A DNA stretch of 64,000 nt from an uncultured Phycisphaeraceae bacterium (GTDB taxonomy: Bacteria; Planctomycetota; Phycisphaerae; Phycisphaerales; Phycisphaeraceae): NCBI GenBank assembly GCA_963799335.1, contig CAWCWR010000001.1, positions 436,414-500,413 of the forward strand, read 5' to 3'. The notes beneath the pieces were generated by a model, which was given only the letters and a program-made list of their open reading frames with translations, had not been told where the DNA came from and made no database searches. The translations under genes were made by a program, and so were the position numbers. Positions 23,996 to 60,441 of the stretch are shown here, in pieces. Each line of letters starts with the position of its first letter. Position 1 is the stretch's first letter.

Positions 23996-24045
23996 TGGAC
24001 AACACGGGTATTTACCTAAAGCGGACTCTCCGCGAAGGCTATTCC

Positions 24046-25710
24046 ATGACCCAGACACTCTCCCCTGCCCTCCGCCGCGTTGGCTCGACCAAACGACCCC
24101 GGGGCTCCATGAAACGCTTTGACCCCAAGCTCTGGGACCAGCTGCTGGACACCCTCAAGCAGCGCTACGCCCCCATCTGTCGCCAGTGGTTTTCCGAAGA
24201 CCTCGAACCCGGTCGGCTCGACGGCGGGGTGCTCGAAATCCTCACCGCGACCGCCATCCAGCAGAATTATCTGCAGAAGCGTTGTCTCGAACCTTTTACC
24301 GAGGCCGCCCAGGCGGTGACCCAGCAGCTGGTCGCGGTTCGCTTTGTTTGCGAACTCACCCCGGCCCCGTCGGCGGAGACCGCCGAGCCCGACCCCGCCG
24401 CCCTGGAAGCCCTGCTGCCGCCGACGCCCGCCCCGGCCGATGTGGCCGTGGATGCCCGCCCCACCCCCGACGGTGATCCCGACGAGGCGGCCCGCGGGGA
24501 GTCCGGGGTGGCCGAATCCGGGGACTCACCCCGTAGCCTCTCGTCGGCGCACCCCGAGCACCGGGTCGTCCTGCCCGCGCCCGCCGCCGCGCCCGCCGCC
24601 CCTTCCCGGACCACCGCTTCGTTATCTGCCCGCGAAGCGCTGCCCGACTCGGTCGGCGACGTGGATGCCGATTCGATGGTGCTCAGCCCCGATTACAGCT
24701 TCGATAACTTCATCACCGGGCCCAACAACCAGCTCGCCGGCGCGGCGGCCGTGGCGGTCGCCAATCAGCCCGGCACGACCTACAACCCGCTGTTCATCCA
24801 CGGCGGGGTGGGCCTGGGCAAGACCCACCTGCTCCAGTCCATCTGCCAGTCGATCCTCACCCGGCAGCCCGCGACCCGGATCCTGTACGTCTCCTGCGAC
24901 GCGTTCATGAATCAGTTCATCGCCTGCGTCAAGGCGGGCAAGATGAGCCAGTTCCGACATCATTACCGCGATGTCGATCTGCTGGTGATCGACGACATCC
25001 ACTTCTTGGCCAACCGTGAACGCTCGCAGGAAGAGTTTTTCCACACCTTTAACGAGCTGTATCAGTCCAACCGGCAGATCGTGCTGAGCTCCGACGCGGC
25101 CCCGTCGGAGATCCCGAACCTCGAAGAACGCCTGGTTTCGCGGTTCAACTGGGGCCTGGTGGCCCACGTCAGCAAGCCGGGCTATGAAACCCGCGTCGCG
25201 ATCCTGCAGGCCAAGGCCGCGCTGCGCGGTTTCAAGGTCCCGGCCGAAGTCATCGATCTGGTGGCCCGCAAGGTCGATTCCAACGCCCGGGAACTCGAAG
25301 GCGCGATCGTCAACCTCCAGGGCTACGCCCAGCTTATGGAGCGCGAAGTCGATATGGCTCTGGCGCGGGAAGCCCTGGGCGAGCCGGCCATGCCCGCCCA
25401 AGCCAACCGCGCCACCCTCCAGCACATCGTGGACGTGGTCACCCGCTACTACGACGTGAAACTCATCGACCTCCAGTCCCGCCGCCGGCACAAGTCCATC
25501 GTCGAACCCCGCCAGGTCTGCATGTGGCTGGCGCAAACGCACCCGGTTCAGCCTCGAGGAGATCGGCGGCTACTTCGGCGGCCGGGACCACACCACCGTC
25601 ATGCACTCCATCGAGGTCGTCGAAAACCGCATGAACAACGAAGACGGCTTCACGCCGCAGGTCAACACCATGCTCGACGAGCTGGACCGCGCCACCGCCC
25701 AGGCGTATTG
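24046..25710 (+). CDS. dnaA: Chromosomal replication initiator DnaA, C-terminal frameshift near 25530
   Basis: DnaA N-domain, then an AAA+ core (GGVGLGKTHLL; VIDDIHFL; sensor residues). The DNA-binding domain (VCMWLA...) shifts frame, and the corrected frame reads ...RKRTRFSLEEIGGYFGGRDHTTVMHSIEVVENRM...ATAQAY and stops at about 25710. The ORF-track run to 25884 is an artefact of the shift. Confidence 0.85.
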
Positions 25711-25849
25711 ACCCTCCCTCCGCCCCCCCCTCACCCCCCCTTCGCCCCCCGTCCCGACACCTTTTCACCTCGAACTCATTCCACGGTTCCCCGCGCCTCA
25801 TCTCGCAGTCTCTCCTACCCCGGCCGTCCCGCGTTCAGACTCCGCTGGC

Positions 25850-26721
25850 AAACGGGGGTCGGCGGGGGTCGGCGGCGAGGGTGATCCGCTCGATCTTGGT
25901 GGCCAGGCGGGAGCCCGGGTCGATGTCGATGATCACCCCGTGGACCTGGGGATTGGCCTCGCTCACGTCGAAGGCCGCGGGCAGGCCGGTGGACATGTGG
26001 TGCACCACGCGGTCGGCGCGTCGGCCCAAGACCGAGTCCTGCGGCCCGGTCATGCCCAGGTCGGTGACGTAGGCGGTGCCCCCCTTTCCGCGGAGGGTGT
26101 CGGGGTGGTTGGGGATCGACAGCTCGCTGCCGGGGGCCGGGAGGATGCGGGCGTCGGCGGTGGGGACGTGGGTGTGGCTGCCCACGACGGCGGCGACCCG
26201 GCCGTTGGCGTGCCAACCGAAGGCGACTTTCTCGCTGGTCGCCTCGCAGTGGATCTCCAGGATCACCACCGCGGGCGGCTGCTTCCGCAGGTCGTCGAGC
26301 AGGCGATCCGATCGGCGGCGAAGGGGTCGTCGGCCTGCACCGAATTCATAAACAGTCGGCCCATGATCGTGCAGACCACCAGGTCGGGTCCACTCTCGTC
26401 CACGGGGTTGGGCAGCCGCATGTACCCCTTGCCCCAGGCCCGGCCGGGCACGTTGATCGGGCGGATCAGCCGGTCCGTCTCGTTGAGCGTGTGTTTGATC
26501 TGCTGCTTACGGAAGGCGTGGTCACCCAGGGTCATGCCGTCCACGCCCGCGTCGCGGAGCTTCTTGTACTGCTCGGGGGTGATGCCCGAGCCGTTGGCGA
26601 CGTTCTCGGCATTGGCGAGGATCAGATCGACGCCGTGGGTCTCGCGGAGGACGGGAATTTGCTGGGTCAGGGCCTGCCGGCCGGGCGTGCCGACGAGGTC
26701 GCCGAGGAAAGCGATTTTCAT
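25850..26721 (-). CDS. YmdB-like metallophosphoesterase (TIGR00282 family), frameshift near 26270-26300
   Basis: MKIAFLGDLVGTPGR...ILANAENVANGSGIT (N-terminal fragment), then ...VILEIHCEATSEKVAFGWHANGRVAAVVGSHTHVPTADARIL...TDLGMTGP (C-terminal fragment). The two fragments are adjacent ORFs in different frames. Confidence 0.75.
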
Positions 26722-26951: not shown

Positions 26952-27452
26952 ATGCGATGCCCCTTCTGCCAAGCCAACGACGACAAGGTCATCGACTCCC
27001 GCGAGGTCGAGCACGGCGGCTCGATCCGTCGTCGGCGGGAGTGCAAGCAATGCGGCAAACGCTTCACCACCTACGAACACGTCGAAACCAACACCCGGCT
27101 GACGGTGATCAAACGCGACGGCAACCGCGTGCCTTTCGACCGCGAAAAGCTGATGGGCGGGTTGCAGAAATCGACCTACAAACGGCCCGTGACCGCGGAC
27201 CAGCTGTCCACCGTGGTCGACGAGATCGAGGCCGAGCTGTTCCGCCGCGGGGCCAAGGAAGTCGAATCGACCGACATCGGCCGGCTGTGCGTGGAAAAAC
27301 TCAAACGCCTGGACCACGTCGCCTACGTCCGCTTTGCCAGCGTCTACATGAAGATCGCCAACATCGACGACCTGCTGGAAGAAATGATCGAAGTCAAGAC
27401 GACCGGCCCCGAGCCCGAGCGGCCCGACCAGGGGACACTGTTCAAAGGGTAA
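26952..27452 (+). CDS. nrdR: Transcriptional repressor NrdR
   Basis: N-terminal Zn ribbon MRCPFCQ...CKQCGKRFTTYE, then an ATP-cone. Confidence 0.9.
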   Translation: MRCPFCQANDDKVIDSREVEHGGSIRRRRECKQCGKRFTTYEHVETNTRLTVIKRDGNRVPFDREKLMGGLQKSTYKRPVTADQLSTVVDEIEAELFRRGAKEVESTDIGRLCVEKLKRLDHVAYVRFASVYMKIANIDDLLEEMIEVKTTGPEPERPDQGTLFKG

Positions 27453-30868: not shown

Positions 30869-31082
30869 AATCAAGCAGCCCTATCAAACAAACAACTTCA
30901 GCCACAGACCGCCGACCACAACCTGGTTTTTAGCAATTCGCTCAAATCAACTTTCACAACTCCCCTGCCTTGCATCCGCGTCCATCCGCGGTTTCAACTT
31001 CTTATGTTTTTCTCCGCGTCTTGGCGTCTCCGCGTCTTGGCGTTTGCATCACACCCCCCACTCCTGATTAAGCGATTTTCCC

Positions 31083-32730
31083 ATGATCCACCTCCTCGGT
31101 CTCTCCCTCGCCCAGTTCAACCCCCTTAACGACGACAGCGCCGGCGGCGGGCTGGGGCTGCTGATCCTCGTGGGCATCCTGCTGCTGATCGCCTTCGCGG
31201 CGTTCATCGCGGTGGTCAAACGCTACAAGCGCTGCCCGTCCAACCGCATCCTCGTGATCTACGGCAAGGTCGGCGGTGAGCGCGCCGCCAAAGCTATCCA
31301 CGGCGGCGGCGCGTTCGTCTGGCCGGTGATCCAGGACTGGGCGTTCCTCTCGCTCGAGCCCATGACCATCGACATCGAACTCGCCAGCGCACTGTCGAAG
31401 AAGAACATCCGCGTCGGCGTGCCCTCGACCTTCACCGTGGCGATCAGCACCGAGCCGGACGTGATGAACAACGCCGCCGAGCGGTTGTTGGGCTTGCGTG
31501 AACAGGAGATCGCCGCCCAGGCACGCGACATTATCCTCGGCCAGATGCGCTTGGTCATCGCGATGCTCACCATCGAAGAGATCAACCAGGACCGCGAGAA
31601 ATTCCTGGACCTGGTCAACAAGAACGTCAACTTTGAATTGTCCAAAGTCGGCCTCTACATGATCAACGTGAACATCCGCGACATCACCGATGAAAGCGGC
31701 TACATCGAAGCTCTGGGTAAAAAAGCCGCGGCCGAGGCGATCAACCAAGCGAAGATCGACACCGCCCAAGCGCCGCGTGAAGGGGCCATCGGCACCGCGG
31801 CGGCGGACAACCAGCGCGAGGTGCAGGTCTCGGCGCAGGTCGCCGAGTCCAACATCGGCCAGAAGCAGGCGGAACGCGACCAGCGCATCCGCACCGCCGC
31901 GCTCGAGGCCGAAGGCATCGCCGGCGAGGCCGGCTCGCAGCGCGAACAAGAGATCGCCATCGCCCAGCAAAACGCCCTGGCGATCCAGGGCAAGAAGCAG
32001 GCGGAGGCGGACCAGCGCATCAAGGTCGCCAGCTACGAAGCCCAATCGATCGAAGGGGAAAACAAGTCTAAAGCCGACATCGCCGCCTACGAAGCGACCC
32101 TCGCCGAGGCCCGCGCCGACTCCCGCCGCCGCGGGGACGTGGCCCTGGCTAACGCCAGCCGCGACGTTCTCGTCGCAGAGAAGGAAGAAGAACTGGCGCG
32201 GATGGAAAAAGACGTCATCGCCAAGCAGATGATCGAGCAGCAGCAGGTCAAGATCGAAGCCGAGGCCGAGGCCGAACGCATCCGCCGGATCGCGCAGGGC
32301 AACGCCGACGGCACGCTGGCGAAATACAACGCCGAGGCCGAAGGCCTGCGCAAAGTCCTCGACGCCAAGGCCGCGGGGTACAAAGCGCTCGATCGACAGC
32401 TGCGGCGACCGCAAGGACATCGCCCCGGCCCTGCTGATTATCGAAAAACTCCCCGAACTCGTCGCCGAGCAGGTCAAAGCCATCCAGAACCTCAAGATCG
32501 ACAAGATCACCGTGTGGGACAGCGGCCAAGGCGCCGGCGGCGACGGGACGACGGGTTCAACGGGCAACTTCCTCAAGGGCCTCATCGGATCACTCCCCCC
32601 CATCCACGAACTCGCCGAACAGGCGGGCATCGACTTGCCCGAGGTCCTGGGCAAGGTGCAACGACCCGCGGAAGAAACCTCGGCACCCGATGTCTCGACT
32701 CCAGCCCCTGTCGCAGACTTGAATCGCTAA
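31083..32730 (+). CDS. Flotillin-like SPFH/band-7 protein (FloT/YuaG-like), frameshift near 32390
   Basis: N-terminal transmembrane segment, SPFH domain, then a long EA-repeat coiled coil. The C-terminal ...ITVWDSGQGAGGDG... continues in track ORF 32512-32730. Confidence 0.85.
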
Positions 32731-32787
32731 CTTTTACTGATCTGCAGCCAGTCCGTCTGTTTTGTCTCGCTCATGCACACTCAGTCG

Positions 32788-33684
32788 TCACCCGTTGTTA
32801 TCATCCGCCCCTGCCCGGAAACGCTCATGCAGTGTTCGACCATTGGCATCCTTCCAAGCTAGCCAACCATTACCAGTACCGCCCATTAATACATTTGCAG
32901 CCGCACTCGGGCTACTGAAGGATTCGTCACGGGTTAACACGAGGATCCCATTTTTTTCAATAAGTAAGCCCTCTTCTATCAGGCGTGCTCTTCGCTTCGG
33001 CTGGGAGTGGTTTCCGCTAAAAGAGGGAACAGCATCAAGCCGGCCGGTCGAGCCTTTCAGTACTGTCAAACCGTCTTCGGTATATACCGCTTGAGCATTG
33101 ATACCCCGGTCTGTGCAATAAAATCTTCGTGAAGCTTTATCATTCGTCGTATCGGTTGATACTTTTTTAGAAACCTTGGCTTCGAAAACTGCGAAGCCGA
33201 CAGTGCTCAGCAGCGTTCCCGCCGTCTCAAATACTTCCATCACGTCCGCCTGCATCCACTCGGGGATAGGTGGCTGCGAGCCCGCGTTGCCGTTGGCGAG
33301 TTGGTAGCGGCCGGCCTCGTTGGCTTCCCGGATCGAGAGGAACTCCAGCAAGCGGGCGTGGGCTTTGGTGAGGCTGCCGGTGCGGGAACCGATCACGACG
33401 GCAAGATTCCAAAAATCTTTTTTTGGATCCTGGTGGTGTTGTTTAAGTCGGCTCGCGCAATTGTCTGCCTCGCCGATGTACACCATCGGTTCGCCGTCGT
33501 CGGACTCGCCGAACAGGAAGTAGACGCCCACGCCGGTGAACTCATCTCGCGGCAGCGCCTGATCCAGCTTGGAACGTGGCACGACGGCGGCCTGCACGAT
33601 GCGGGTAGTGATCTCGGCGATCCGCACGCCCCGGGGTTCCCCGGCCGGGCAGTAGATTTGTATGGTCTGGCCACGCTTGTTCAT
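32788..33684 (-). CDS. GIY-YIG nuclease domain protein with C-terminal DUF4357-like domain
   Basis: GVYFLFGESDDGEPMVYIGEADNCASRLKQH (GIY-YIG core). C-terminal LVLTRDESFSSPSAAANVLMGGTGNGWLAWKDANGRTL. The gene is about 50% GC against about 68% in its flanks. Confidence 0.7.
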   Translation of the reverse strand: MNKRGQTIQIYCPAGEPRGVRIAEITTRIVQAAVVPRSKLDQALPRDEFTGVGVYFLFGESDDGEPMVYIGEADNCASRLKQHHQDPKKDFWNLAVVIGSRTGSLTKAHARLLEFLSIREANEAGRYQLANGNAGSQPPIPEWMQADVMEVFETAGTLLSTVGFAVFEAKVSKKVSTDTTNDKASRRFYCTDRGINAQAVYTEDGLTVLKGSTGRLDAVPSFSGNHSQPKRRARLIEEGLLIEKNGILVLTRDESFSSPSAAANVLMGGTGNGWLAWKDANGRTLHERFRAGADDNNG

Positions 33685-35989: not shown

Positions 35990-37103
35990 CGCCGAAGACC
36001 CGAAACTTACAAGGCGTCGATCACCATCTGGCCGATGTCGGTGGTCGAATATCCCGAGCGGTCCAGGGACTTGCCGGCAAACTTCGGGGTCACCGCCTGT
36101 ACCGCCTGGCCGATCTTTTGCCCCGCCTGCACCGCGGCGGCGTGGCCCTTGATCCGGCCGACCTCGCGCAGCAGCAATCCCATCGAATCGATGGCGGCGA
36201 TGGGGTTGGCCTTGTTCTGACCGGCGATGTCGGGGCGCTGCCGTGCACCGGCTCGAACATGCTCGGGGCCTTCCCCGTCGGATCGAGATTGCCCGAACTG
36301 GCGATGCCCATGCCCCCCGCGATCGCCGCGCCCAGGTCGGTGATGATGTCGCCAAACATATTGGGCACCACGATCACGTCGTAGATCTCCGGGCTGCTGA
36401 CCATGTACATGCAGCACGCATCGACGTGGTGGTAATGCGTTTCGATCTCGGGAAACTCCTCCGCCACCTCGTGGAACGTCCTCAGCCAGGTCTCGCCGGC
36501 GAAGTTGAGCACGTTGGTTTTGTGCACCAGCGTGAGGTGGCCGGCGTAGCCCTGATTTTTGCGATTCTTGGCGGTGTCAAAGGCGTAACGGACGCAGCGC
36601 TCCACGCCGTGGCGGGTGGCGACCATGGTCTGGTTGGCGACCTCGTGGGGCGTGCCCTTGCGCATGATCCCGCCCAGGCCGCAGTAGAGGTCTTCGGTGT
36701 TTTCGCGGACGCAGACGAAGTCGATGTCGTCGGCGGTCTTGTTTTTCAGCGGCGTGTCGATGCCGGGGTACAGCTTCACGGGACGCAGGTTGATGTACTG
36801 ATCCAGGTCGAAACGCAGCTTCAGCAGGATGCCCTTTTCGATCACGCCGCCCGCGAGGCGGGGGTCATTGGGTTGGCCGCCCACGGCCCCGAGCATGATC
36901 GCGTCGAAGCCGCGGAGCGTGGCGATGTCCTCGTCGGTCAGCACGTGGCCGGTGTCGAGGTAGTGGGCCGCGGAAAAGGGGAAGTCCGTCCGGGCCACGT
37001 CGAGCTTGACACTGGGGGCCACGGCATCGAGGACATCGAAAGCCTGCTCGACGACTTCGGGCCCGATGCCGTCGCCGGCGAGGTTGGCTAATCTAAGGGT
37101 CAT
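35990..37103 (-). CDS. 3-isopropylmalate/tartrate dehydrogenase family enzyme, C-terminal frameshift near 36240
   Basis: GDGIGPEV...VRENTEDLY...NLDPTGKAPSMFEPVHGSAP, then the frame is lost. The correct C-terminus (DIAGQNKANPIAAIDSMGLLLREVG...) lies in track ORF 36007-36417. Confidence 0.8.
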
Positions 37104-43775: not shown

Positions 43776-44939
43776 TCAGGCGTCCGCGGGGGGGAGCGGG
43801 GCGGGGATTTTTTGGTCCAGGAGCGACTGGAGTTGATCCCGGCCGCGGGTGAATTTCATGGCGACGATGGGGCGGTAGACCGGGAGGCGGGCCTTGACGC
43901 CCGAGGCGAAGGTGCGCCATTTGACGTAGTCCTTTTCGGTGGTGACCACGGCGTCGGCCTGCCGTTCGAGGGCGACGCTGAAGATGCCTTCGAGTTCGTC
44001 GCGGCTGTAGCGGAAGTGGTCGTCGTAGGTCAGCACGCCGACGCACGAGCCGGCGACTTCGCGGAGGCGGTCGGCGAAGTCGCGGGGGTTGCCGATGCCC
44101 GCGACGCCGAGGACCGCGCGGTTCGCCAGGCGGTCCAGGGGGTAGGGTTTGAAGGACAGGTGCAGGGCGGTCCAGTCGTGAACGGCGTGGGCCAGGGGTG
44201 GCCGGCCGGTGATTTTTTGGATCGTGTCGTCGAGTGCTTGAAGCTGGGGGGGGGTGGCGCGGTCGGTGCGGGTGAGGATCACGGCGTCGGCGCGGCGGAG
44301 GGCGGAGCGGGGTTCGCGGAGCAGGCCGCGGGGCAGGAGGTGGTCAAAGCCGAAGGGCCGGAGCGAATCGACGAGCACGAGGTTCAGGTCGCGGCGGGCG
44401 CGGCGGTGTTGAAACGCGTCGTCGAGGAGGAAGACGGTGGTCCGGGGGTGTTCCTGGAGCACGCGGGCGGCGCCGGCGACGCGGTTGGCGTCGGGCATGA
44501 CGGGGATGTCGCCGCCGAGGCTGCCGCGGAGTTCGGCGGCTTCGTCGCTGCCTTTTTTGTTTTCGTAGCCCCCGGGCTCGTAGCCGCGCAGCAGCACCGC
44601 GGGCCGATGCCCGGTGGCCTGAAGCAGGCGGGCCAAGGCGATGACCATGGGCGTCTTGCCGGTGCCGCCGGCGGTGAGGTTGCCGACGCTGACGGTGGGC
44701 CGGCCCAGGTCGCGGGTGGGCAGGATGCCGGCGGCGTAGAGGGCGTTGCGGCCGGTGACCGCGGCGCGGTAGGGCAGCGTGGCGGGCAGGGTCAGGCCGC
44801 GCAGGGCGGCGGCGGCGAGGTCGCGGGCCTCCCCGCTCATGATCCGGTGGATACGGTCGTGGCTGGGCAGCCATTGATTGAGGCGGCGGGGCTCGGACAC
44901 GTCAACGGCCCACGCTTTCTCGAGCAACGGGTCCCGCAA
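43776..44939 (-). CDS. lpxK: Tetraacyldisaccharide 4'-kinase
   Basis: SVGNLTAGGTGKTPMV P-loop in an LpxK-like arrangement. The 3' end overlaps maf. Confidence 0.85.
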   Translation of the reverse strand: MRDPLLEKAWAVDVSEPRRLNQWLPSHDRIHRIMSGEARDLAAAALRGLTLPATLPYRAAVTGRNALYAAGILPTRDLGRPTVSVGNLTAGGTGKTPMVIALARLLQATGHRPAVLLRGYEPGGYENKKGSDEAAELRGSLGGDIPVMPDANRVAGAARVLQEHPRTTVFLLDDAFQHRRARRDLNLVLVDSLRPFGFDHLLPRGLLREPRSALRRADAVILTRTDRATPPQLQALDDTIQKITGRPPLAHAVHDWTALHLSFKPYPLDRLANRAVLGVAGIGNPRDFADRLREVAGSCVGVLTYDDHFRYSRDELEGIFSVALERQADAVVTTEKDYVKWRTFASGVKARLPVYRPIVAMKFTRGRDQLQSLLDQKIPAPLPPADA

Positions 44940-45615
44940 GCAACGGCCCGCCCGCGACGCCCAGTTCGAGCAGCTCCGCCTTCAACCGCCGCATCGGCAA
45001 ACCCATCACCGTGCCCGGATCGCCCGCGACCCGGATCCGCCAACCTGCGGCCAACCGCTCGGCCAGGTTGTAGCCCCCGGCCTTGCCCCGCCAGGCCCCG
45101 GTGGACACATAGTCCAGCAGTTGACCATCCTTCATCTCCGCGATCTGCACCGTCGCCGTTTCAGCATACGCCGCATGCTCCCGCGCGGCCCCGTCCTCGA
45201 CCACCCGCAGCGCCACGCCGGTCACGATGCGGTGGCGACGGCCAACCAAACGCCCCAACATCGCCGCCGCCGCCTCCGCGGTTTCGGGTGTGCCCAGCAA
45301 CCCGCCGGCGTGGTCAACGCCCAACGTATCGGCGCTCAGCAGCACGGCTCCCGCCGGCAAGGCCGAGACCTCCACGCTCTCCGCCTTGGCCTGCGCCAGG
45401 TGGATCGCCAGCTCTGACCCGGTCAACGCCGAGGCCGAGGCGGACGACCGGCGCTGGTGGCGGTTCGGATCCGCGGGGTCGGCGTAGGGCGGATCGACGG
45501 TGATGAAGTCAAACCCCGACTCACGCAGCAGCAGCGCCCGCCGGGGCGATCGGCTGGCGAGCACCAGCGGACGCGGGGGCAGAGACGCGGGTTGGCGGGG
45601 CGGGTCGGCGGGCAT
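44902..45615 (-). CDS. maf: Maf-like nucleoside triphosphate pyrophosphatase
   Basis: LVLASRSPRRALLLRESGFDF ... a Maf core with an inserted loop. Confidence 0.7.
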   Translation of the reverse strand: MPADPPRQPASLPPRPLVLASRSPRRALLLRESGFDFITVDPPYADPADPNRHQRRSSASASALTGSELAIHLAQAKAESVEVSALPAGAVLLSADTLGVDHAGGLLGTPETAEAAAAMLGRLVGRRHRIVTGVALRVVEDGAAREHAAYAETATVQIAEMKDGQLLDYVSTGAWRGKAGGYNLAERLAAGWRIRVAGDPGTVMGLPMRRLKAELLELGVAGGPLLAGPVARESVGR

Positions 45616-45695: not shown

Positions 45696-47554
45696 GTGTC
45701 CCCCTCTCCCCTTACCTTTCAAGGACGGAAGGTTCCCCCCGTGCGCACCATCGCGATCATTAACCAAAAAGGCGGCTGTGGCAAAACCACGACGTCGATC
45801 AACCTCGCGGCGGTGCTTGCCCTGCGTGGCCACCGCACGCTGCTGGTGGACATGGACCCCCAGTCGCACTGCGCCTTGGGCCTGGCGGTCCCCGAAAGCC
45901 AGATCGAACAATCGATGGCGGACCTGTTGGAGCACGGCCTGGACGGCACGTTGTCGGTCTCCGACATCACCTGGCAGATCAGCCGCGGCCTGGACCTGGC
46001 CCCGTCGTCGATGGCGCTGGCGATGATGGAGCAGCAGCTCGCCACCGCTTCAGACAAGGACCGCCGACTCGCGCAGGTCCTCTCGACCGCGGCCGACCGC
46101 TACGACTTCTGCATCATCGACTGCCCCCCCAGCATCGGGCTGCTGACGTTCAACGCGCTGCGCACCGCCGACGAAGTCCTGATCCCCGTGGAGACCGGCT
46201 ACTTCGCGATGCAGGGCGGCGTCCGCCAGGAACAAACCATCGAGATGCTCGCCCGCCGGGTGGGGCAGCGGGTGCGCTTCCGCGTGCTGCCGACGATGTA
46301 CGACGTGCGGACCAAGCTGGCCCGCGAAATCCTGGCGGAACTCAAAAAGCACTTCGGCCAGCGCGTCCTGCCGATGGTCATCAACTTCAACAGCAAGCTC
46401 AAAGAAGCCGCCAGCTTCGGCCAGCCCATCACCGAATACGATGCGGCCTCCCGCGGGATGCAGGACTTCGAGCAACTCGCCGACTGGTTGGCGGCCAACC
46501 CCCCCGCCGCCCCGACCCCCGCGCTGCCGTTGGAAAACGAAGCCCCCGCCTCGGCCGACGCTCAAGCTTCCGCCCATGCCACCGCGGACACGATGACGGA
46601 CTCCACCCCCCCCGTTCCCACCCCCGGCCTGTCCACCGGGGCCGCGCTGCCGACGGGCCCGGGGCCCGAACGCCAATCCCCCGCCGACCGCACCGCCCGC
46701 CCCGCCGCCGCCCTCTCGCCCCTCCACCCCGCGGCCCCCCACGCCCCGGCCCCCGTCGGCCGGTCCGCCAGCGGCAACCCCGCCCTCAGCCGGGCCGCCG
46801 AGCTGGTCGAACGTGCCCGCGCTCTCTCCAACCGCCCCGCCAACCTCAACGATCCCTTCAAACCGGCCCCCCCCCCTCTCGCCCCCCCTCTCGCCTCCCC
46901 TCTCGCCTCCCCGACCGCCTCCCCGACCGCCTCCCCGACCGCTCCCCCCAGGTGCCCCAACCCGTCATCGTGCCCGCCTCCATCACCACCCCCCCTCATC
47001 CCGCCGCCGCCGCCCCCCCGGCCGCGACCCCGGCGGAGAAAACCAACAACGGCCCGGCCACCCTCGTCCCGATCCCCACGCCCCCCGCGATCCCGGGCCC
47101 CGACGCCCCCCGCAGCGAACAACTCGCCCAGCTCTACGGCGTCCGCCTCACCTCCCGCGGCACGTTGTTCGTCCAGCCCGCCGACGCGGTGGGGAACGGG
47201 GACAAGCTGGCCATCGCCGGGGATTTCAACAACTGGAACCCCGCGCAGACCCCCATGATCCGCGACGAAAACCTCGGCGTCTGGCGGGCCTGCGTCCAGA
47301 TCCCCGCCGGCCGATACCGCTACCGGCTGGTCAAAAACGGCCAATGGGTTCAGGACCCCTTCAACGCCACCGTCGAGGCCAACCCCTTCGGCGAACTCAA
47401 CAACCTCATCGAAATCAAACCCTCCCCCCTCGCGAACTCCGCCTCCTCCGGCTCCGCGAACTCCGCCCCGGTCTCCACGGTCAAACCCATCGCCGCCGCG
47501 GCCCCCACCATCGTCACCCGGCCCGGAACCTCGCCCCTTCCCGCCAACGTCTAA
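45696..47554 (+). CDS. ParA/MinD-family ATPase with a Pro-rich linker and C-terminal AMPK-beta-type glycogen-binding domain (CBM48). The fusion is inferred across a frameshift at a C7 run at about 46940-46950
   Basis: Deviant Walker A IAIINQKGGCGKTTTSINLA, and DMDPQ. After the ATPase core a real-looking linker (NPALSRAAELVERARALSN...PTASPTASPTAPP) ends at the sequence gctcccccca. The +2 frame then continues PQPVIVPAS...LAIAGDFNNWNP...GVWRACVQIPAGRYRYRLVKNGQWVQDPFN...FGELNNLIEIK. This matches the AMPK1_CBM consensus (SGSFNNW...EGEHQYKFFVDGQWTHDP...GTVNNIIQV). Confidence 0.7.
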
Positions 47555-47618
47555 CCCCCCCCCCTCGCCCCCCCTCGCCCCCTTTCCCCTTGCCGCACGG
47601 ACGCGGCCCCCCACTGTC

Positions 47619-49696
47619 ATGGACGATCAGCACCCGCCATCCTCCCCCCGTCCCCGCGAGTCGGCGGGCTCCCCGCCCGCGTCACGCACCCTCGACTCCC
47701 TCGCGGACCTCTTCCTCACCGACCCCGGCCACCCCCCCGCCCCCCCCGTCACCCCCTCTGCCCCCGTCACCCCGGCCCCGCCCGTCGCGCAGGACCCGAC
47801 CTCCGCGGAAACTTCTCCCGCCCCGGGCTCGGATGCCATCGACCCCGACGCCCCGGCCGACGATCACCTGACCGGACCCGCCCCCATCAAGCTTCGGCCA
47901 AAGGTCGCGAACACCCCCCCGTCCCCCTCCTCTCCTCCACGCCCCCTGGCGCCGCCCCGGGGCCACTCCACGGCCCGCCGTTGGCCCCCCTTTCCGAGGC
48001 GGCGGCGACGGCCGGGTCCGAGGATTGGCCCGCCGACTCGCTGGCGGCGGCGGCGGAACTCCAGGAACTCGCCGAGTGGGTCCAACAAAACCTCGAAGTC
48101 TCCCCCTCCCCCCCCTCTCCCCCTTCTCCCGCCGTGCCCTCCTCCGTCGCGGCGGACGCGCCCGCGCTCCGCTTGGCGGGCGGATCGGACCGGGATGCCG
48201 ATGCCCAGTGCCGATCTGAAATGTCGGACGCGGCCCCCCCCTCATCCCCGCCCCCCTCGTCTGCCCACGACACGCCTGCGGGTCACCTGATTGCCGAGAC
48301 CGACGGCCCGACCCGCGCGGTGGCGGAGGCGGTGTTGCTGGGCAACCTGCCGGGCATGGCGGGGCCTTGGCTGACCCAGTACGGGCAGCGGCTGGCTCAG
48401 CAGGACGGCACCGTCGCCATCGTCCACCTGGCGGGCGACACCGCGGACCTCGAACTCATCGAACCCACCTCCCGCCCGCCGGCGGAAGCCACCGACGGCG
48501 ATCCCCGGCAGATCCACCGCCGCCAGCACGCCCGGGGCGCGACGCCGGGCCTCGGCTGCGCATCCCGCCCGGCGGCTTCCGCGGCCGGCCCCTGGTCGAG
48601 GTCCTCGACCACCTCTGCCGCCTGGCCCACGCCCCGGTCCGCACGGTGTTGCTGCATCTCGACGCCACCGCGGCGTCGGTGCCGCAGCTGTTGGACCTGG
48701 ACTATTGGACCCTGCTCAGCGGGGCCGACGACGCCGCGATCGTGGCGGGGTATCGCCTGCTCAAGCAGCTGCTGGACGCCGACGAGCGGGTGGCGCGGGC
48801 CCACGTCGGGCTGATGGTCGTGGGCAGCGACCACTCGGCGGGGCAGAACGCGCTGACCAAGCTCCGCGCCGCGGTGGGCCAGGGGTTTCACGCGCCGTTT
48901 GATCTGCTGGGCCATCAGCAGCGCAGGTGACGCCGGCGCACTGCCGCACCCTCGGCCGGTTTTCCGTGGACGCCGCCGCCTGGGATGGTCTCCGCGAATG
49001 GCTGATGGAGTTGCAGCCCCCCGAGGCCGCGGCGCAAACCGCGGCGGTCGCGGAAGAATCGGTGGAAGTCCGGGCGTCGCTGGAGGCCGAGGCTTCCGGT
49101 TCCTCCCGTCGCGCAAGTGCGGGGGCGGCGATGCACCAACCTTTCCGTCCGGCGGCGGGGGGCAAGCTCCCGCCCCTTTCCCGGCCGATCGAAGATCGCG
49201 CCGCCAAGCACGCGACGCACGGCCCGTCCTCTTCTCCCCGTTTCACCGCGGACCTGCACCGGGGGACTCCCCCGACCTGTTCGAGTTGATCGACACCGAC
49301 CCCCGCACCACCGCGTCGATCCCCGGCGGCCTCCCGCTCGAAGCCCGCTGCCCCCGTCAGCCCGACACCCAGCTGGCGGTGGATGCCGCCGGCCGACTCC
49401 ACCTGCTGCACCGCCACGACTCGGCCCACGATGACCTGCCCACCCCCCGCGAGGCCATCGTCAACCTCGTGGCGGTCCGCGACTGGGCCCGGCAGCACCT
49501 CCAACTGCTCCAGCTCACCGAACGCACCCGGCACTTCGACCTCAACACCGATCCCCAGCTGCACCTGTTCACCGACCGGGCGGACCAGGCGGTCGGCCTC
49601 GTCGCCCAGCTCGGCGACCTGATCAAGCTCCACCTGCTGCGCGAAGTCACCCTCGGCGATCAGAAAACCCTCTTCTGCACCCCCCTCTCGGCCTAA
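47619..49696 (+). CDS. Large Pro-rich hypothetical protein, fragmented over at least 4 frames
   Basis: Consecutive overlapping track ORFs (47619, 47981, 48367, 48927, 48899) each carry protein-like segments, e.g. AVAEAVLLGNLPGMAGPWLTQYGQRLAQQDGTVAIVHLAGD, VLLHLDATAASVPQLLDLDYWTLLSGADDAAIVAGYRLLKQLL, and a C-terminal ...LIKLHLLREVTLGDQKTLFCTPLSA. Confidence 0.4.
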
Positions 49697-49848: not shown

Positions 49849-50532
49849 ATGCGAACCCTCGCGCTCGGCGATATCCACGGCTGCCACACCGCGCTGACCA
49901 CCCTCCAGGCCTACGCGGGCTTCGCCCCCGACGACCTGATCCTCACCCTGGGCGACGTGGTGGATAAAGGTCCGCAGGTGCCGCAGGTGCTGAATTGGCT
50001 CATCGATCGACAGGCGGCCGGGCAGTTGGTGGCGCTGCGGGGCAATCATGACGTGCTCATGCTCGAAGCCCGCGGGTCGCAACACCGTTTTGACGTGTGG
50101 CTGACCTGCGGGGGCCGGGAGACCCTCGAAGGGTATAACCTGCCGCTTAAACAGAAATCGCTGGGCGAGATCCCCGACGCCCACTGGGCGTTTCTCCAGG
50201 CCACCGTCCTGTTTCACGAGACCGACACGCACTTTTTTGTTCACGGCAACGTCGATCCCGACCTGCCCCTGAGCGAACAACCCGAGCACGTCCTGCTTTG
50301 GGAAAAATTCCACACCCCCCCGCTGCACCCGGTCCCCGAGCCCCACCTCTCGGGCAAAACCATGGTCTGCGGCCATACGTCCCAAAAGTCGGGCCACATC
50401 AACGACCAGGGCCACGCGGTGTGCATCGACACCTGGGCCTGCGGCAACGGCTGGCTCACCGCCCTGGACCCCTACAGCGGCGAATACTGGCAAGCCAACC
50501 AGTCGGGCAAAACCCGCCGCGGGCGTCGCTGA
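49849..50532 (+). CDS. Ser/Thr protein phosphatase (PPP-family metallophosphoesterase, PrpE/ApaH-like)
   Basis: GDIHG, GDVVDKG and GNHD motifs. Confidence 0.85.
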   Translation: MRTLALGDIHGCHTALTTLQAYAGFAPDDLILTLGDVVDKGPQVPQVLNWLIDRQAAGQLVALRGNHDVLMLEARGSQHRFDVWLTCGGRETLEGYNLPLKQKSLGEIPDAHWAFLQATVLFHETDTHFFVHGNVDPDLPLSEQPEHVLLWEKFHTPPLHPVPEPHLSGKTMVCGHTSQKSGHINDQGHAVCIDTWACGNGWLTALDPYSGEYWQANQSGKTRRGRR

Positions 50533-50637: not shown

Positions 50638-51315
50638 TCAGCCCTGGCGGCGCCGGCGTGCAAGCAGTGCCAACCCGCCCAGGCCCAGGAGCCCGGCGGT
50701 GGTTGGCTCGGGGACCAGCGTCAGCCGCAGCGTCGCGGGTACCGCGTCGGCGTCGGTGGACTCCAACGCATCGACGATGAAAGACGCAAAGCTAATGGTC
50801 TCGCTGCGGATGGTGAAGAAGTCGTCGCTGTTGGCGTCGGCCAAAACGGCATTGAGGCTCGCGACGCCGGCGGTGAGATCGATGGCGAAGTCGGTGTTGT
50901 TGGCCGTGCCGACCAGGTCACCGCGGCTGCCGATGAGCGTACCGCCGACGTTGTCGGCGACGGTCACCGTGCCGTCGCCCGTAAAGCCGAACAGACTCAA
51001 GGGGGCCGGATTACCGCCAAGGTTGGTGATCTGAATGTCGGTCCGCAGTAGCAGCGTGGCCTCGGTGATGACCGCGTCGAATGCCAGCGAGGAGAGGTCG
51101 AACTCGAAGACCCCGTTGGAAATGTTATTCGGACCCGACATGGAGGTATTGATGTTGACCGCCGACTCGCTTTGGACCGAAGAACCTAGCACCCCGCTGG
51201 TCTGGATCCGGGCGTCGGCAGACACGACGATATCGACCACCGGCTGCGCAATCGCCGCCGAACCACAAGCCAGCGTCAACGACGCGGCGCAGACCGTTTG
51301 AACCAAAGCTTTCAT
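50638..51315 (-). CDS. PEP-CTERM sorting-domain protein
   Basis: Signal peptide MKALVQTVCAASLTLACGSAAIAQP. C-terminal VPEPTTAGLLGLGGLALLARRRRQG. Confidence 0.75.
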   Translation of the reverse strand: MKALVQTVCAASLTLACGSAAIAQPVVDIVVSADARIQTSGVLGSSVQSESAVNINTSMSGPNNISNGVFEFDLSSLAFDAVITEATLLLRTDIQITNLGGNPAPLSLFGFTGDGTVTVADNVGGTLIGSRGDLVGTANNTDFAIDLTAGVASLNAVLADANSDDFFTIRSETISFASFIVDALESTDADAVPATLRLTLVPEPTTAGLLGLGGLALLARRRRQG

Positions 51316-51591
51316 GACTTTCTCCTCCAGGGATGTACAAAACTTCTTGCTCCGGCGTCTCCTCCGGGCATCGCCGCGACCGGCGTTAAGCCCGAACTTA
51401 GCAACCGGACGATCAAGGGTCAACCCCTAATCACGCGATGAGCCGGAAAAAAGGGAAAACCCCGAGTTGTTTGATCGGTGTGCTCCTGCGGCTTGAGGCT
51501 GCCATTTTGACGCTCAATGGGAGGAGCAAACTCCCCTGCCGGGCCATGGTGAGGGGTGCGTGTGGCAAGTCGATTGCGTAAAGTCAAGGGT

Positions 51592-52506: not shown

Positions 52507-52632
52507 CCCCCCCCGCCCCCCGTCCCCATCGGGGGGGGCACGCCCGCCGGCGGTCTTTCGGGGTGCAGGGGCAGCGCCCCTGCCGCCCGCCGCGCAGCGC
52601 TTGCCTTAAAAACTCAGAAAGGGCAAAAACTT

Positions 52633-55424
52633 ATGGACCCTAATAAATTCACGCAAAAAACGCAGGAAGCCCTGCAGCAGGCCCAAAACCTCGCCGTCGA
52701 AGCGCGGTCATCAGGCTGTCGATGTCGAGCACCTCACCCTCGCGCTGGTCGAGCAGCCCGACGGCCTCATCCCCCGGCTGCTGGACAAGCTCCAGCGTCC
52801 CGCCGACGTCGTCGCCGGCGAACTCCACCGTCAGCTTGCCGGCCGCCCGTCGGTCACCGGCGGCAGCGCCTCGACCGGTCTCCCAAGGCCAGATCGCCGT
52901 CACCCAGCCTCTGCAGCAACTCCTCGTCGCCGCCGAGAAACAGGCGTCAGCCGGCTCAAAGACGAGTACGTCAGCGTCGAGCACCTGATCCTCGCCTTGC
53001 TGGACAAGCGGCAACTCCCCCGCGGCCAAAATCTTCAAAGACCTGGGCATCTCGCTGGACACCTTCCGCGGCGCTCGACCGAGATCCGCGGCAACCAGCG
53101 CGTCCAGTCCGCCAACCCCGAAGCGACCTACGAGTCGCTGGCCAAGTACGGCCGGGACCTGGTCGAAGTCCGCGCTCGGGCAAGATGGACCCGGTCATCG
53201 GCCGCGACGAAGAGATCCGCCGCACCATCCGCATCCTCTCCCGCAAGACGAAGAACAACCCCGTGCTCATCGGCGAGCCGGGCGTCGGCAAGACCGCCAT
53301 CGCCGAGGGACTCGCCCAACGCATCGTCCGCGGCGATGTGCCCGAAGGCCTCAAGAACAAGACCGTCTTCGCCCTGGACATGGGCAGCCTGATCGCCGGC
53401 GCGAAATTCCGCGGCGAGTTTGAAGAACGGCTCAAGGCCGTGCTTAATGAAGTCAAGCAGGCCGAAGGTCGGGTCATCCTCTTCATCGACGAATTGCACA
53501 CCATCGTCGGCGCCGGCAAGGCCGACGGGGCCATGGACGCGGGCAATCTGCTCAAACCCATGCTCGCCCGCGGCGAGCTGCACTGCATCGGCGCGACCAC
53601 GCTCAATGAGTACCGCCAGTACATCGAGAAGGACGCCGCCCTCGAGCGTCGCTTCCAGCCGGTGCTGGTCGATCAGCCGACGGTCGAAGACACGATCAGT
53701 ATTTTGCGTGGATTGCGCGAGCGGTTCGAGGTTTTTCACGGCGTGAAGATTCAGGACAACGCGCTGGTCGAATGCCGCCGTGCTGAGCCACCGCTACATC
53801 ACCGACCGCTTTTTGCCCGACAAGGCGATCGACCTGGTGGACGAAGCGTGCGCGATGATCCGCACGGAGATGGACTCGATGCCCGCGGAGTTGGATGACC
53901 TGACCCGCCGGGTGATGCAGCTGGAAATCGAAGAGGCGGCGTTGAAAAAGGAGACCGACGACGCCAGCCGTTCGCGCCTGCGCGTTCTCCAAAAGGAGCT
54001 TGCGGACCTGCGCGACCGACGCCGACGCGATGCGGACGCGGTGGGAAAACGAGCGGGGCAACCTCGACAAGGTCCGCCACCTGCGCGAACAGATCGAGCA
54101 GACCAAGCTGGAGATCGAGCAGGCCGAGAACGCCTACGACCTGCAGAAAGCCGCCGAGCTGAAGTACGGCAAGCTGCCGGAACTGGAGAAGCAACTCGTG
54201 GCGGAGGAACAGCGGGCCGGGGCGTCCTCGGATGCGTCGCGCACGGGCGTATCCGCCCCGGGCAGATCCGGGCAGCGGGGGGGAGGAGCATAAGGTCCGG
54301 GCCGGGGACGGCCCGGCTCACGGAAGTAGCCGGCTCACGGAAGTAGTCCGGCTCGGGGGGGGATGCGGCCTCGCCCCTCTTCCGCGACGCGGTGACCGAC
54401 GACGAGATCGCCCAGATCGTCGCCCGCTGGACCGCATCCCCGTCGCCCGCCTCGTCGAAGGCGAACGCGAAAAACTCCTCAAACTCGCCGACACCCTGCA
54501 CGAGCGCGTCATCGGCCAGGACGAAGCCGTCCAACTCGTCGCCGACGCGGTGCTCCGCGCCCGCGCCGGCATCAAGGACCCCAAGCGGCCCATCGGCAGC
54601 TTCCTGTTCCTCGGGCCCACCGGCGTGGGCAAGACCGAACTCTCCAAAGCCCTGGCCGAAGCGCTCTTCGATAGCGAAGACAACCTCGTCCGCCTGGACA
54701 TGTCCGAGTACATGGAAAAGCACAGCGTCTCCCGCCTCATCGGCGCCCCGCCGGGTTACGTCGGCTACGACGAGGGCGGCCAACTCACCGAGGCGGTCCG
54801 CCGCAAGCCCTACGCCGTGGTCCTCTTTGACGAAGTCGAAAAAGCCCACGCCGACGTGTTCAACGCGCTGCTGCAGGTCCTCGACGACGGCCAGCTCACC
54901 GACAGCCAGGGCCGGACGGTCAATTTCAAAAACACCGTCATCATCATGACCTCCAACCTCGGCAGCCAGTTCATGCTCGACGATTCCATCTTGATGGGCG
55001 AGTCCACATCCGCGGGCGGCTTGTCCGATCCACCAAGAACCAGGTCATGGCCAGCGTCCGGGCCCACTTCCGCCCCGAGTTTCTCAACCGCGTCGACGAG
55101 ATCGTCATGTTCACCCCGCTGGGCCTGGGCGAGATCCGGCAGATCGTCACGCTGCTGGCCGCCGACCTGCAGCGTCGTCTCGCGGACCGGCGGATCACGT
55201 TGACGATCACCGACGCCGCCGCGACCCACCTCGCCGAGGCGGGCCACGACCCGATCTACGGCGCCCGGCCGCTGCGTCGCTACCTCCAACGCGACCTCGA
55301 GACCCGCCTGGGCCGAGCCATCATCGCCGGGGAAGTCCCCGACGGCTCCACGGTCACTGTCGACCACCGGGAAGACGACGACGCCGACGACCCTCTGACC
55401 CTCCGCATCACGCCGCCCAAGTAA
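52633..55424 (+). CDS. clpB: ATP-dependent chaperone ClpB, at least 5 frameshifts
   Basis: [24 protein letters not shown]-domain. NBD1: [35 protein letters not shown]. Middle coiled coil. NBD2: [31 protein letters not shown], and C-terminal [10 protein letters not shown]. The segments lie in at least 6 consecutive frames (track ORFs 52633, 53780, 54000, 54232, 55047). Confidence 0.85.
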
Positions 55425-58788: not shown

Positions 58789-60441
58789 ATGATAAGGCTT
58801 TCGCTTAATAGTTGTTGTAGGTTTGTCTCTGCAGTTTTGGTGGGGGTAACCGCTTCCGCCGACCCTTTCGACGCCCCGACGGGATATTACGATTCGGCGA
58901 CGGGGACGGGGGTGACGCTGCAGAATCAGCTGCACAACATCATCGACAACCACCGGGTGCAGAGCTACAACGCGGCGCGGTCGGCGTTGCAGGTGACCGA
59001 CGAGGACCCGGACGACGGTCGGCGGATGCTGCTGGTCTATAGCCGGGAGTCGCTGGACGTGTCGCGGATCAACGGGAGCCCGCCGGGGTGGGACAGCGGG
59101 CGGAGCTGGGACCGCGAGCACACCTGGCCGCGGAGCCGGGGGGTGGACAGCAGCGGGCCGGACAATTCGGACCTGCACCAGCTGCGGCCGTCGGACCCGC
59201 AGCTAAACTCCCGCCGGGGCAACCTGAACTTCGGCGGGGCGTTCGGGGCCAACGGCGGCAACACGGGTCGCCTCAGTGACGGCGGGGACGTGTGGTATCC
59301 CGGCAACGAGGACGCGGGCATGATCGCCCGGCAGATGTTCTACATGGACGTCCGCTACGACGGCTCGGACAGCAACACCCAAAACCTGCGGCTGGTCAAC
59401 GGCAACCCCGCGCTGGGCGGCGCGACGCTGGGCAATCTCGACCGGCTGATCCAGTGGCATTACGAAGCGGCGCCCGACCGGTTTGAGCGGCGGCGCAACG
59501 ACGTGATCTTTGATGACTATCAAGGCAACCGCAACCCGTTCATCGATCGGCCGCAGCTGGCGTGGTCGGTGTTCGTAGACCGGCGCAACGACAGTCGGAT
59601 CAGCGTGGCGGGCGGGGTGACGTCGGCAGACGGGGGCTCGACGCTGGAGGTAGACCTGGGGCGGGTATTCGTGGGCGGCGCGGGGCCGGAGATCCGCGAG
59701 ATTACGCTCAACAAGAGCGGCAACGACGGGACGTATTATTCGGTGACGGGGGGCGGAGCCGTCACCGGGGCACTGCCGGAGCTCGCGCAGGCCTTCAGCA
59801 GTCTCGGGACCGACGCGGCGACGCTGCGGGTGGGCCTGGACGCCGATTCGTCGTCGGCAGGGGCGTTTGACGGGCAACTGACCATCGACAACCTCGACGT
59901 GACGGACCAGGGCGGCACGGGTCGCGGGGCCCGCGATGCCGACGACGTGGTCGATCTCCGCTACACCGTATTTGACCACGCGACGGCGAGCTTTAGCGGC
60001 GACACCGCGGAGGACCGCCGGTCGCTGGACTTTGGTGACGTGGAATTTGGCGCGGCCGGCGACGACGCGGAACGGGGCTTTTCGATCTTCAACCTTGACG
60101 GGACGGCGGGCTTTACCTCCGCGCTCGCGGTGGGCACGTGGTCAGCGATCTCGGGGGACACCGCGGTGCTGAGCTTGATCGACGGCGACCAGGCGGGGCC
60201 GGATATCGCAGCGGGCGGGAGCCTGCGGCAGGCGGCGATGATCGACGCGTCGGTCGCCGCGGGGACCTATACCGCGGTGTGGGGCCTGGACGTGGGCGAC
60301 GCACTGCTGCTGGCGGGTGTGCAGCAGGGACGGTTGACCCTGACACTGACCGCTCAGGTCGTGCCCGAGCCAGGCTTGGTCGGATTTATGCTGATCGTGA
60401 GCCTGGGCGTGATGACCCGCCGGCGGCGGGCGGCCGCCTGA
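58789..60441 (+). CDS. Extracellular nuclease, endonuclease I family, with PEP-CTERM anchor
   Basis: EHTWPRSRG...DLHQLRPSDPQLNSRRGNLNFG (endonuclease I motifs). C-terminal VPEPGLVGFMLIVSLGVMTRRRRAAA. Confidence 0.75.
   Translation: MIRLSLNSCCRFVSAVLVGVTASADPFDAPTGYYDSATGTGVTLQNQLHNIIDNHRVQSYNAARSALQVTDEDPDDGRRMLLVYSRESLDVSRINGSPPGWDSGRSWDREHTWPRSRGVDSSGPDNSDLHQLRPSDPQLNSRRGNLNFGGAFGANGGNTGRLSDGGDVWYPGNEDAGMIARQMFYMDVRYDGSDSNTQNLRLVNGNPALGGATLGNLDRLIQWHYEAAPDRFERRRNDVIFDDYQGNRNPFIDRPQLAWSVFVDRRNDSRISVAGGVTSADGGSTLEVDLGRVFVGGAGPEIREITLNKSGNDGTYYSVTGGGAVTGALPELAQAFSSLGTDAATLRVGLDADSSSAGAFDGQLTIDNLDVTDQGGTGRGARDADDVVDLRYTVFDHATASFSGDTAEDRRSLDFGDVEFGAAGDDAERGFSIFNLDGTAGFTSALAVGTWSAISGDTAVLSLIDGDQAGPDIAAGGSLRQAAMIDASVAAGTYTAVWGLDVGDALLLAGVQQGRLTLTLTAQVVPEPGLVGFMLIVSLGVMTRRRRAAA

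Follow-up and report, generated by a model that had tools for sequence, protein, structure and literature searches.

ParA/MinD ATPases are a general bacterial means of placing chromosomes, plasmids, carboxysomes, chemoreceptor arrays, and division sites, and every established case known to us employs a separate adaptor between the ATPase and its cargo. Here, we analyze a 64,000-nucleotide stretch of DNA from an uncultured Phycisphaeraceae bacterium (GenBank assembly GCA_963799335.1, contig CAWCWR010000001.1, positions 436,414 to 500,413; hereafter the window, in which coordinates are counted) and one gene in it, which we call ParA-CBM. Its reconstructed product joins a Soj/ParA-type ATPase to a C-terminal carbohydrate-binding module of family 48 (CBM48) of the AMPK-beta type, and the gene that follows encodes a partner whose central domain we read as a pseudo-ATPase. 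The component families are known; the novelty lies in placing the cargo-binding domain on the ATPase, in the pseudo-ATPase partner, and in the implied cargo. A whole bacterial order keeps this Soj-like ParA with its built-in, putatively glycogen-binding module and its degenerate ParA-like partner.

The closest described relatives of the ATPase are the chromosomal ParA/Soj proteins (8RAY, 1WCV, 6IUB). The 255 aa ATPase domain aligns with them end to end at 38 to 43% identity, shares the signature lysine of Walker A, the motif 2 aspartates, Walker B, and the basic DNA-binding residues, and is likewise encoded near the origin. ParA-CBM differs from these proteins by a C-terminal extension of approximately 170 to 390 aa that contains a conserved helix and the CBM48, by the absence of an adjacent parB, by the loss of pocket residues Y81, D110, and E117, by a histidine in place of N64, and by the putative pseudo-ATPase encoded downstream. 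With McdA/McdB, ParC/ParP, PpfA, and PomXYZ, the locus shares the arrangement of a ParA-family ATPase beside a disordered-rich, system-specific partner and, as we propose below, it would share with McdA/McdB and orphan cargo positioners the nucleoid as the matrix on which a large cytoplasmic cargo is distributed. Unlike in McdAB, the cargo-binding module resides on the ATPase rather than on the adaptor, and the ATPase is only weakly similar in sequence to McdA (E = 1e-13). The partner has a degenerate MinD/ParA fold rather than being of the McdB, CheW, or coiled-coil type, and the proposed cargo is a polysaccharide granule. The closest folds to the central domain of the partner are the MinD-like ATPases FlhG and FleN (12 to 14% identity), from which it differs in the absence of the P-loop lysine and Ser/Thr (GNLPGxxGPW), in its long disordered flanks, in an extra C-terminal domain, and in the lack of a flagellar context.

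The carbohydrate-binding module belongs to the same Pfam family as those of AMPK beta (1Z0M/1Z0N, 2F15) and SEX4 and shares with them a β-sandwich of approximately 85 aa and the same Trp, Lys/Arg, Trp, and Asn sites. Unlike those modules, which are attached to a kinase scaffold or to a phosphatase, it is bacterial and cytoplasmic and is fused with a P-loop partition ATPase; relative to AMPK beta, K126 is replaced by Arg and L146 by Phe or Tyr. A precedent for a single polypeptide that binds both DNA and a storage granule exists in PhaM of Ralstonia and PhaF of Pseudomonas, with which polyhydroxyalkanoate granules spread along the nucleoid and are inherited by both daughter cells. The logic that we propose for ParA-CBM is the same, without any sequence relationship. 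PhaM and PhaF use histone-like tails to bind DNA and have no nucleotide switch, whereas binding by ParA-CBM would be ATP-gated. An earlier note on this DNA, made from the sequence alone, knew of no description of such a system, and none linking ParA to glycogen turned up in our search of the full-text literature, whose coverage leaves out most subscription-journal papers, so that absence is not proof. A review of cell division in the Planctomycetes–Verrucomicrobia–Chlamydiae group has no ParA/ParB content.

Reconstruction and distribution of the ParA-CBM gene

The two parts of ParA-CBM lie in different reading frames, as the earlier note had claimed. The ParA/MinD ATPase occupies frame mod-0 (45696/45741 onward) and matches PF13614 with E = 4e-47 (160.9 bits, cutoff 27); past the ATPase, this open reading frame (ORF) continues as Pro/Arg/Cys-rich text and ends at 47258. 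The ORF at 46952 to 47554, in frame mod-2, matches AMPK1_CBM PF16561 (E = 3.5e-12; 46.8 bits, cutoff 26.8) and also CBM_48 PF02922 (E = 4.7e-07; 30.5 bits, cutoff 22.4). Both the N-terminal and the C-terminal assignments of that note therefore score above profile thresholds, and the peptides it quoted are present as written. Its observation that each frame looks like protein on its own side of the break agrees with the G+C content at third codon positions (GC3) and with a Viterbi path through codon usage, both of which switch from mod-0 to mod-2 at approximately 46860 to 46950.

The zone of this −1 frame change (46867 to 46949) contains runs of C10 (46867 to 46876), C7 (46882 to 46888), and C6 (46944 to 46949). 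The homopolymer that had been called a C7 at 46930 to 46960 is the C6 run; C7 and C10 lie farther upstream. By homolog alignment, mod-0 is valid to approximately 46876 and mod-2 from approximately 47040, and GC3 and codon scores do not separate the two frames within the Pro-rich repeat, so that the indel is bracketed only, between 46876 and 47040. The most natural junction is the C6 run. Restoring one C at 46949 yields a protein of 604 aa (45741 to 47554, plus strand; mod-0 and then mod-2), as expected if a single indel separates the two parts, and relatives match it over its full length, the best single-ORF relative with E = 1.9e-230 and 100% coverage. Because every one of the 120 best database relatives carries PF13614 and PF16561 in a single protein, and because each of the 76 loci with room upstream has the ParA domain directly upstream of the CBM in the same orientation, the two halves are one gene, almost certainly split in the assembly by a one-base indel; the linkage predicted for a true fusion is thus found in relatives. 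These relatives are single ORFs of 428 to 645 aa with the N terminus MRTIAIINQKGGCGKTT, and translation of ParA-CBM most likely starts at GTG 45741 (MRTIAIINQKGG..., shared with all relatives) rather than at 45696. Named isolates among them are Poriferisphaera corsica (where the protein is annotated as “Soj-like protein”), Poriferisphaera sp. WC338, and Phycisphaeraceae bacterium D3-23.

The window contains at least 12 frame breaks, four of them in the partner gene. The Bac_DnaA_C profile of dnaA (23968 to 25884, with 25460 to 25711) is matched at positions 2 to 42 in one frame and 40 to 67 in another; ymdB (25835 to 26721, minus strand) is divided between frames at profile positions 2 to 129 and 144 to 253; clpB (52507 to 55424) is broken at three or more places (AAA_lid_9 1 to 32 and 31 to 102; AAA_2 and D2-small); a flotillin gene is divided across frames (31068 to 32918, with 32233 to 32730); an isocitrate/isopropylmalate dehydrogenase gene is broken (36013 to 37103); and Iso_dh, GGDEF, and PDDEXK_4 domains are truncated. 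Since no cell could survive with its DnaA DNA-binding domain broken, the assembly behind the window must be rich in indels, and ORF-based calls in it need frameshift-aware handling. The break in ParA-CBM is almost certainly one of these assembly indels and no special feature of the gene.

The alternative, that the sequence is right as given, would make the locus a recent pseudogene, two overlapping genes (one for a ParA with a junk tail and one for a separate CBM protein that begins at GTG 46952), or a case of programmed −1 ribosomal frameshifting. Both ORFs are open as listed, the −1 change falls within a C-rich, slippery-looking stretch, and the four breaks of the next gene likewise are all −1 (five of five together with that in ParA-CBM). 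We nonetheless consider this alternative very improbable: none of the 120 best relatives needs a frameshift; dnaA, clpB, and ymdB are equally broken, dnaA in its DNA-binding domain, and the dnaA and clpB breaks include sites that are not homopolymers and that shift in the opposite direction, a pattern that fits assembly error; and amino-acid identity between ParA-CBM or its partner and their orthologs is 66 to 77% on either side of every break. Programmed frameshifting and overlapping genes were rejected on these grounds. Systematic homopolymer deletion was also rejected as the sole error model, since the dnaA and clpB breaks do not conform to it, and no single model fits. The hexamer CAGGTG is present at two of the break sites (46944 to 46955 and 48922 to 48931), and three others are near CCCGGGG-like strings; this possibly reflects a context-specific basecalling error, and we treat it as coincidence. 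A C5 cytosine methylase is encoded in the window at 27 to 1391.

We used the CBM alignment to scan a single genome for each species; 93 genomes matched, and 80 were kept. The search for ParA-CBM48 fusions in other Planctomycetota, which the earlier note had suggested, thus found them in at least 93 species-level genomes. Seventy-nine of the 80 kept are titled Phycisphaerae or Planctomycetota, and the single exception is labelled Gammaproteobacteria. The partner gene, whose co-occurrence had been put forward in the same note, adjoins ParA-CBM on the same strand at 76 of 79 loci. The three loci without an adjacent partner all belong to Poriferisphaera or close relatives, and in P. corsica a partner homolog of at least 935 aa is encoded approximately 8 kb from ParA-CBM on the opposite strand (locus L002, 19296 to 21353, minus strand). 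ParA-CBM and its partner are a conserved two-gene module specific to Phycisphaerales. In Poriferisphaera (L002, L030, and L045), N_methyl (pilin-like) genes fill the usual position of the partner.

Domains of ParA-CBM and its partner

Three conserved modules (ATPase, helix, and helix plus CBM), with a variable Pro/Ala-rich linker between them, are apparent in our alignments A1 and A4. For the ATPase domain (45741 to 46505, aa 1 to 255), the closest solved structure is that of Myxococcus xanthus ParA (8RAY; PMC12462528), with E = 1e-46, followed by Soj of Thermus thermophilus (E = 2e-40) and of Helicobacter pylori (E = 5e-39); matches to McdA and MinD reach only E = 1e-13 and E = 1e-12. Foldseek gives target-normalized TM-scores of 0.83 to 0.88 against Soj/ParA structures, and an NCBIfam scan of the fusion returned no equivalog above cutoff. 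The top Foldseek match is the integrative Soj–NrdR model 9a6n; NrdR is encoded near dnaA in the window (26952 to 27452), which we note as a curiosity only.

We mapped 42 family members onto M. xanthus ParA numbering. The deviant Walker A motif reads NQKGGCGKTT, with equivalents of the signature K31 and the catalytic K36 kept in all 42; the equivalents of D58 and D60 in motif 2 (LLVDMDPQ) are likewise invariant, as is D127 of Walker B (FCIIDCPP). The DNA-binding R238 is replaced by Lys in all 42 members. R190, which we take to correspond to R189 of Bacillus subtilis Soj, is invariant within TMYDVRT, a motif that aligns with TMYDGRT of T. thermophilus Soj. The ATPase thus looks competent for ATP and DNA binding. 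Its partner-facing surface is different. In M. xanthus ParA, the contact to the arginine in ParB's N-terminal motif is made by Y81, a tyrosine that is invariant in chromosomal ParAs (PMC12462528). Its equivalent in the family is A, P, S, G, or T in 42 of 42 members; that of D110 is acidic in two and that of E117 is Glu in seven, so that of the ParB-arginine pocket defined in that study (Y81, E82, D110, and E117) E82 alone is kept, as Asp or Glu. N64 is replaced by His throughout. Because identity to M. xanthus ParA and T. thermophilus Soj is 38 to 43%, compared with 50% between those two proteins, the ATPase is, on these comparisons, a divergent offshoot of the Soj clade with a remodeled partner surface. 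Across loci, the ATPase domain is 60 to 94% identical, far above LpxK and the 32 to 61% of the neighboring Maf.

Within the otherwise variable linker, a conserved helix (NPALSRAAELVERARALSNRPANL, 46776 to 46847) stands out. Its family form, NPALSRAAELVERARALS, is nearly invariant, with R351, A352, A353, E354, L355, V356, R358, A359, and L362 invariant in A1, and the linker segment is helical in the AlphaFold2 model of family member P0116 (residues 282 to 316). The CBM (47105 to 47425, with the gene's stop codon at 47552 to 47554) is modeled as a β-sandwich preceded by a short helix, with pLDDT >90, and it aligns with the CBM structures of rat and human AMPK beta1/beta2 (E = 1e-11). The sugar-contact motifs FNNW, YRL, GQW, and LNN align with FNNW, YKF, GQW, and VNN of AMPK. 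Equivalents of W100, K126 (Arg here), W133, and N150 of rat AMPK beta1, which we take from the numbering of the 1Z0M/1Z0N work to be the sugar-contact residues, are invariant in both a 14-sequence and a 42-sequence alignment. Weaker matches are all to α-glucan binders, namely SEX4, pullulanase, and GlgB. Judged by its profile, structural matches, and invariant sites, the C-terminal module is a genuine AMPK-beta-type CBM48 with kept sugar-binding residues, as had been proposed. The same CBM type is common, with 6972 library representatives at E ≤ 1e-3, and often occurs in tandem; a recurrent class of approximately 480 aa has four copies, and giant proteins have up to 18 (P0361, 1812 aa).

The partner gene (47619 to 49696, plus strand) had been described as an intact ORF of approximately 690 aa. 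It instead is the ortholog of a 710 aa protein, divided into five frame pieces, which we traced by tblastn with the 585 aa ortholog of locus L001 and the 710 aa ortholog of L003: mod-0 from 47619 to ~47920, mod-2 from ~48000 to 48500, mod-1 from 48520 to 48924, mod-0 from 48930 to ~49230, and mod-2 from 49260 to 49693. Orthologs are 540 to 710 aa in length and are annotated only as “hypothetical proteins”; the family has no Pfam or NCBIfam match, including no match to an ATPase profile. An alignment of 38 partner sequences (A3) reveals a common layout of an N-terminal MDD...LDELADLFLTG segment, the peptide GPAPI(K/R)LxPK, an LRL motif, a central domain of approximately 220 aa, a disordered Pro-rich spacer, and a C-terminal domain of approximately 130 aa. 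The N-terminal peptide reads LDSLADLFLT in the window (47691 to 47720), and L12, A13, and L17 are invariant. The second peptide, GPAPIKLRPK (47874 to 47903), has a hydrophobic-basic-hydrophobic pattern with P37 and K38 invariant, and, by analogy with the ParB motif of PMC12462528, it is a candidate ATPase-contacting motif.

The central domain of the partner (48317 to 49004) has a SIMIBI fold like that of MinD/ParA, in which the P-loop, GNLPGMAGPW, is degenerate and lacks the lysine. At this position all 38 sequences read GNLPG(M/L)(A/S)GPW, without Lys or Ser/Thr, and because the lysine is missing from the P-loop site, we read the domain as a probable pseudo-ATPase. The C-terminal α/β domain (IPGGLPLEARCP...HLFTDRAD...LKLHLL, 49262 to 49693) is also conserved.

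Proposed function and competing readings

We tentatively propose that ParA-CBM is an ATP-switched tether from the nucleoid to glycogen granules that operates with its own partner, a reading to which we assign slightly less than an even chance. The gene product would present, in order, a Soj-type ATPase, a long flexible Pro/Ala-rich linker with its conserved helix, and the C-terminal CBM48. ATP-bound dimers would bind the nucleoid nonspecifically, as the kept catalytic and basic DNA-binding residues suggest, and the two CBMs of a dimer, each on a flexible tether of approximately 100 to 300 residues, would bind the α-glucan of glycogen particles, as the kept W/R/W/N residues suggest. Many such weak, ATP-switched tethers could hold and spread granules over the nucleoid rather than leave them pole-excluded, and both daughter cells would inherit them. 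Hydrolysis would free the granules at a rate set by the pseudo-ATPase partner through its N-terminal peptides. Strict co-occurrence and the lost ParB-arginine pocket point to the partner, and not ParB, as the element that would control the ATPase cycle. The more specific claim, that a nucleotide-switched ParA gripping glycogen by its own C terminus and regulated by a pseudo-ParA distributes and partitions granules on the nucleoid, we hold with clearly greater reserve, as possible. Glycogen-granule positioning as such is plausible and partly supported.

If the tether is real, a polysaccharide storage granule would have its first active positioning system, and ParA-CBM would be the first ParA-family member with a cargo-binding domain covalently part of the ATPase. 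ParA-type positioning would then reach polysaccharide stores, and a cargo-tethered ATPase with a pseudo-ATPase regulator would be a new design. It would also tie carbon storage to nucleoid organization, and perhaps to the segregation of chromosomes, in a lineage with a poorly understood cell cycle and a ParB without neighboring ParA.

Several points weigh against the tether. Cargo binding in classical ParA systems falls to the adaptor and not to the ATPase, and a ParA permanently tethered to its cargo does not obviously produce directed motion. CBM48-like domains also serve in sensing or in protein contacts. As described above, the ATPase is much closer to chromosomal Soj/ParA than to the cargo positioner McdA. 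The gene lies approximately 20 kb from dnaA, whose presence in the window makes the locus origin-proximal. ParB presents a further difficulty. The Phycisphaerales ParB has the canonical three domains and, at its N terminus, the ParA-binding motif LGRGLSSLM, and parS-like palindromes (TGTTCCACGTGGAACA and variants) are found inside or just upstream of parB in related loci, so that this ParB needs some ParA. Its gene lacks an adjacent parA in six of six Phycisphaerales contexts (L085, 4992 to 6011; L086, L087, L088, L090, and L091). In four loci (L028/L085, L061, L070, and L076), parB is 4 to 5 kb from ParA-CBM on the other strand; elsewhere, it is 20 to 640 kb away. No second ParA was seen in approximately 1 Mb of Phycisphaerales loci. 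In the window, no match to the canonical parS TGTTTCACGTGAAACA was found at up to three mismatches, its variants occurring only beside parB in related loci, and a regular-expression search for the ParB GERRxRA box found none, although frame breaks could hide one. A small HisKA/HATPase_c gene is divergently upstream of parB in four of six loci.

These observations bear on a serious rival reading, in which ParA-CBM is the chromosomal ParA (the Soj ortholog) of a Phycisphaerales ParABS system that segregates ParB–parS, with the partner as a lineage-specific regulator. The CBM would then be an add-on that holds free ParA on (polar) glycogen, by anchoring or by sequestering it, or that lets glycogen ride with the segregating nucleoid; elsewhere, ParA is anchored by PopZ/TipN, HubP, DivIVA, or bactofilin–PadC. 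The rival is serious because the ATPase is closest to Soj/ParA, in fold as well as in sequence, because dnaA is 20 kb off, and because ParB is always an orphan. The unusual conservation of the ATPase relative to Maf and the lack of a second ParA in that 1 Mb of loci also favor it. On the other side, the ParB-arginine pocket is not conserved, Y81 being absent from every member; two bona fide chromosomal ParAs resemble each other more than the ATPase resembles either; and the dedicated partner is tightly linked, whereas parB is remote in most genomes. On balance, we regard this main rival, in which ParA-CBM works with the orphan ParB as well as, or in place of, tethering granules, as rather unlikely.

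The tether to glycogen must also be weighed against a reading in which the C-terminal β-sandwich serves protein contacts or binds another glycan, and the ATPase/pseudo-ATPase pair positions something else, such as the site of division or the machinery of the envelope; the literature describes this lineage as FtsZ-less. The neighborhood of the module is conserved, with cbiX, PTPS, a TPR gene, hldE, lpxK, and maf on one side of the divergent ParA-CBM and with the partner, dnaJ, and clpB on the other, and the window matches its relatives in this respect. The divergent upstream neighbors lpxK (43776 to 44939) and maf (44902 to 45615; together 43776 to 45615, minus strand) are conserved, maf being divergently upstream of ParA-CBM in 62 of 73 loci. 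Maf belongs to a septum-associated family of nucleotide pyrophosphatases, and lpxK/hldE likewise are related to the envelope or to division, which favors this reading, as do the absence of any carbohydrate-related domain from the partner and the many other architectures, including multirepeat proteins, in which the CBM type is found. However, invariance of the AMPK sugar-contact residues (W, K/R, W, and N) would be unexpected in a module used purely for protein contacts, and the best CBM matches are solely to glycogen or starch binders. The conserved neighborhood extends to the unrelated genes cbiX, PTPS, dnaJ, and clpB and says little about function. We therefore consider a role apart from glycogen improbable, and more so than the segregation of ParB–parS.

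Other genes of the window

The earlier note had supported its proposal of granule positioning with two further genes. The first, a GT3 glycogen synthase of the eukaryotic type, is present at 20461 to 22389 (PF05693, E = 1.9e-216) and, as identified by this profile, shows that the organism makes glycogen. Its use as support for gene linkage does not hold; because 25 kb of unrelated genes lie between, it implies no linkage to ParA-CBM. The synthase gene is flanked by genes for an ankyrin-repeat protein (19395 to 20366, minus strand) and a CNNM/CBS protein (22489 to 23586).

The second, described as a PP2A-like phosphatase immediately downstream, is a calcineurin-like (PPP/ApaH-type) metallophosphatase encoded at 49849 to 50532 on the plus strand. 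Its identity as a metallophosphatase stands (PF00149, E = 1e-13), with NCBIfam matches (ApaH, PrpA/B) below threshold only. We rejected it as a member of the module, since it is found downstream in only eight loci, all from the close clade of the window.

Among unrelated genes of the window are those for an autotransporter with its β-domain (2693 to 5065) and an Endonuclease I family protein (58789 to 60441). The protein encoded at 50638 to 51423 on the minus strand has a C terminus that, by eye, is PEP-CTERM-like.

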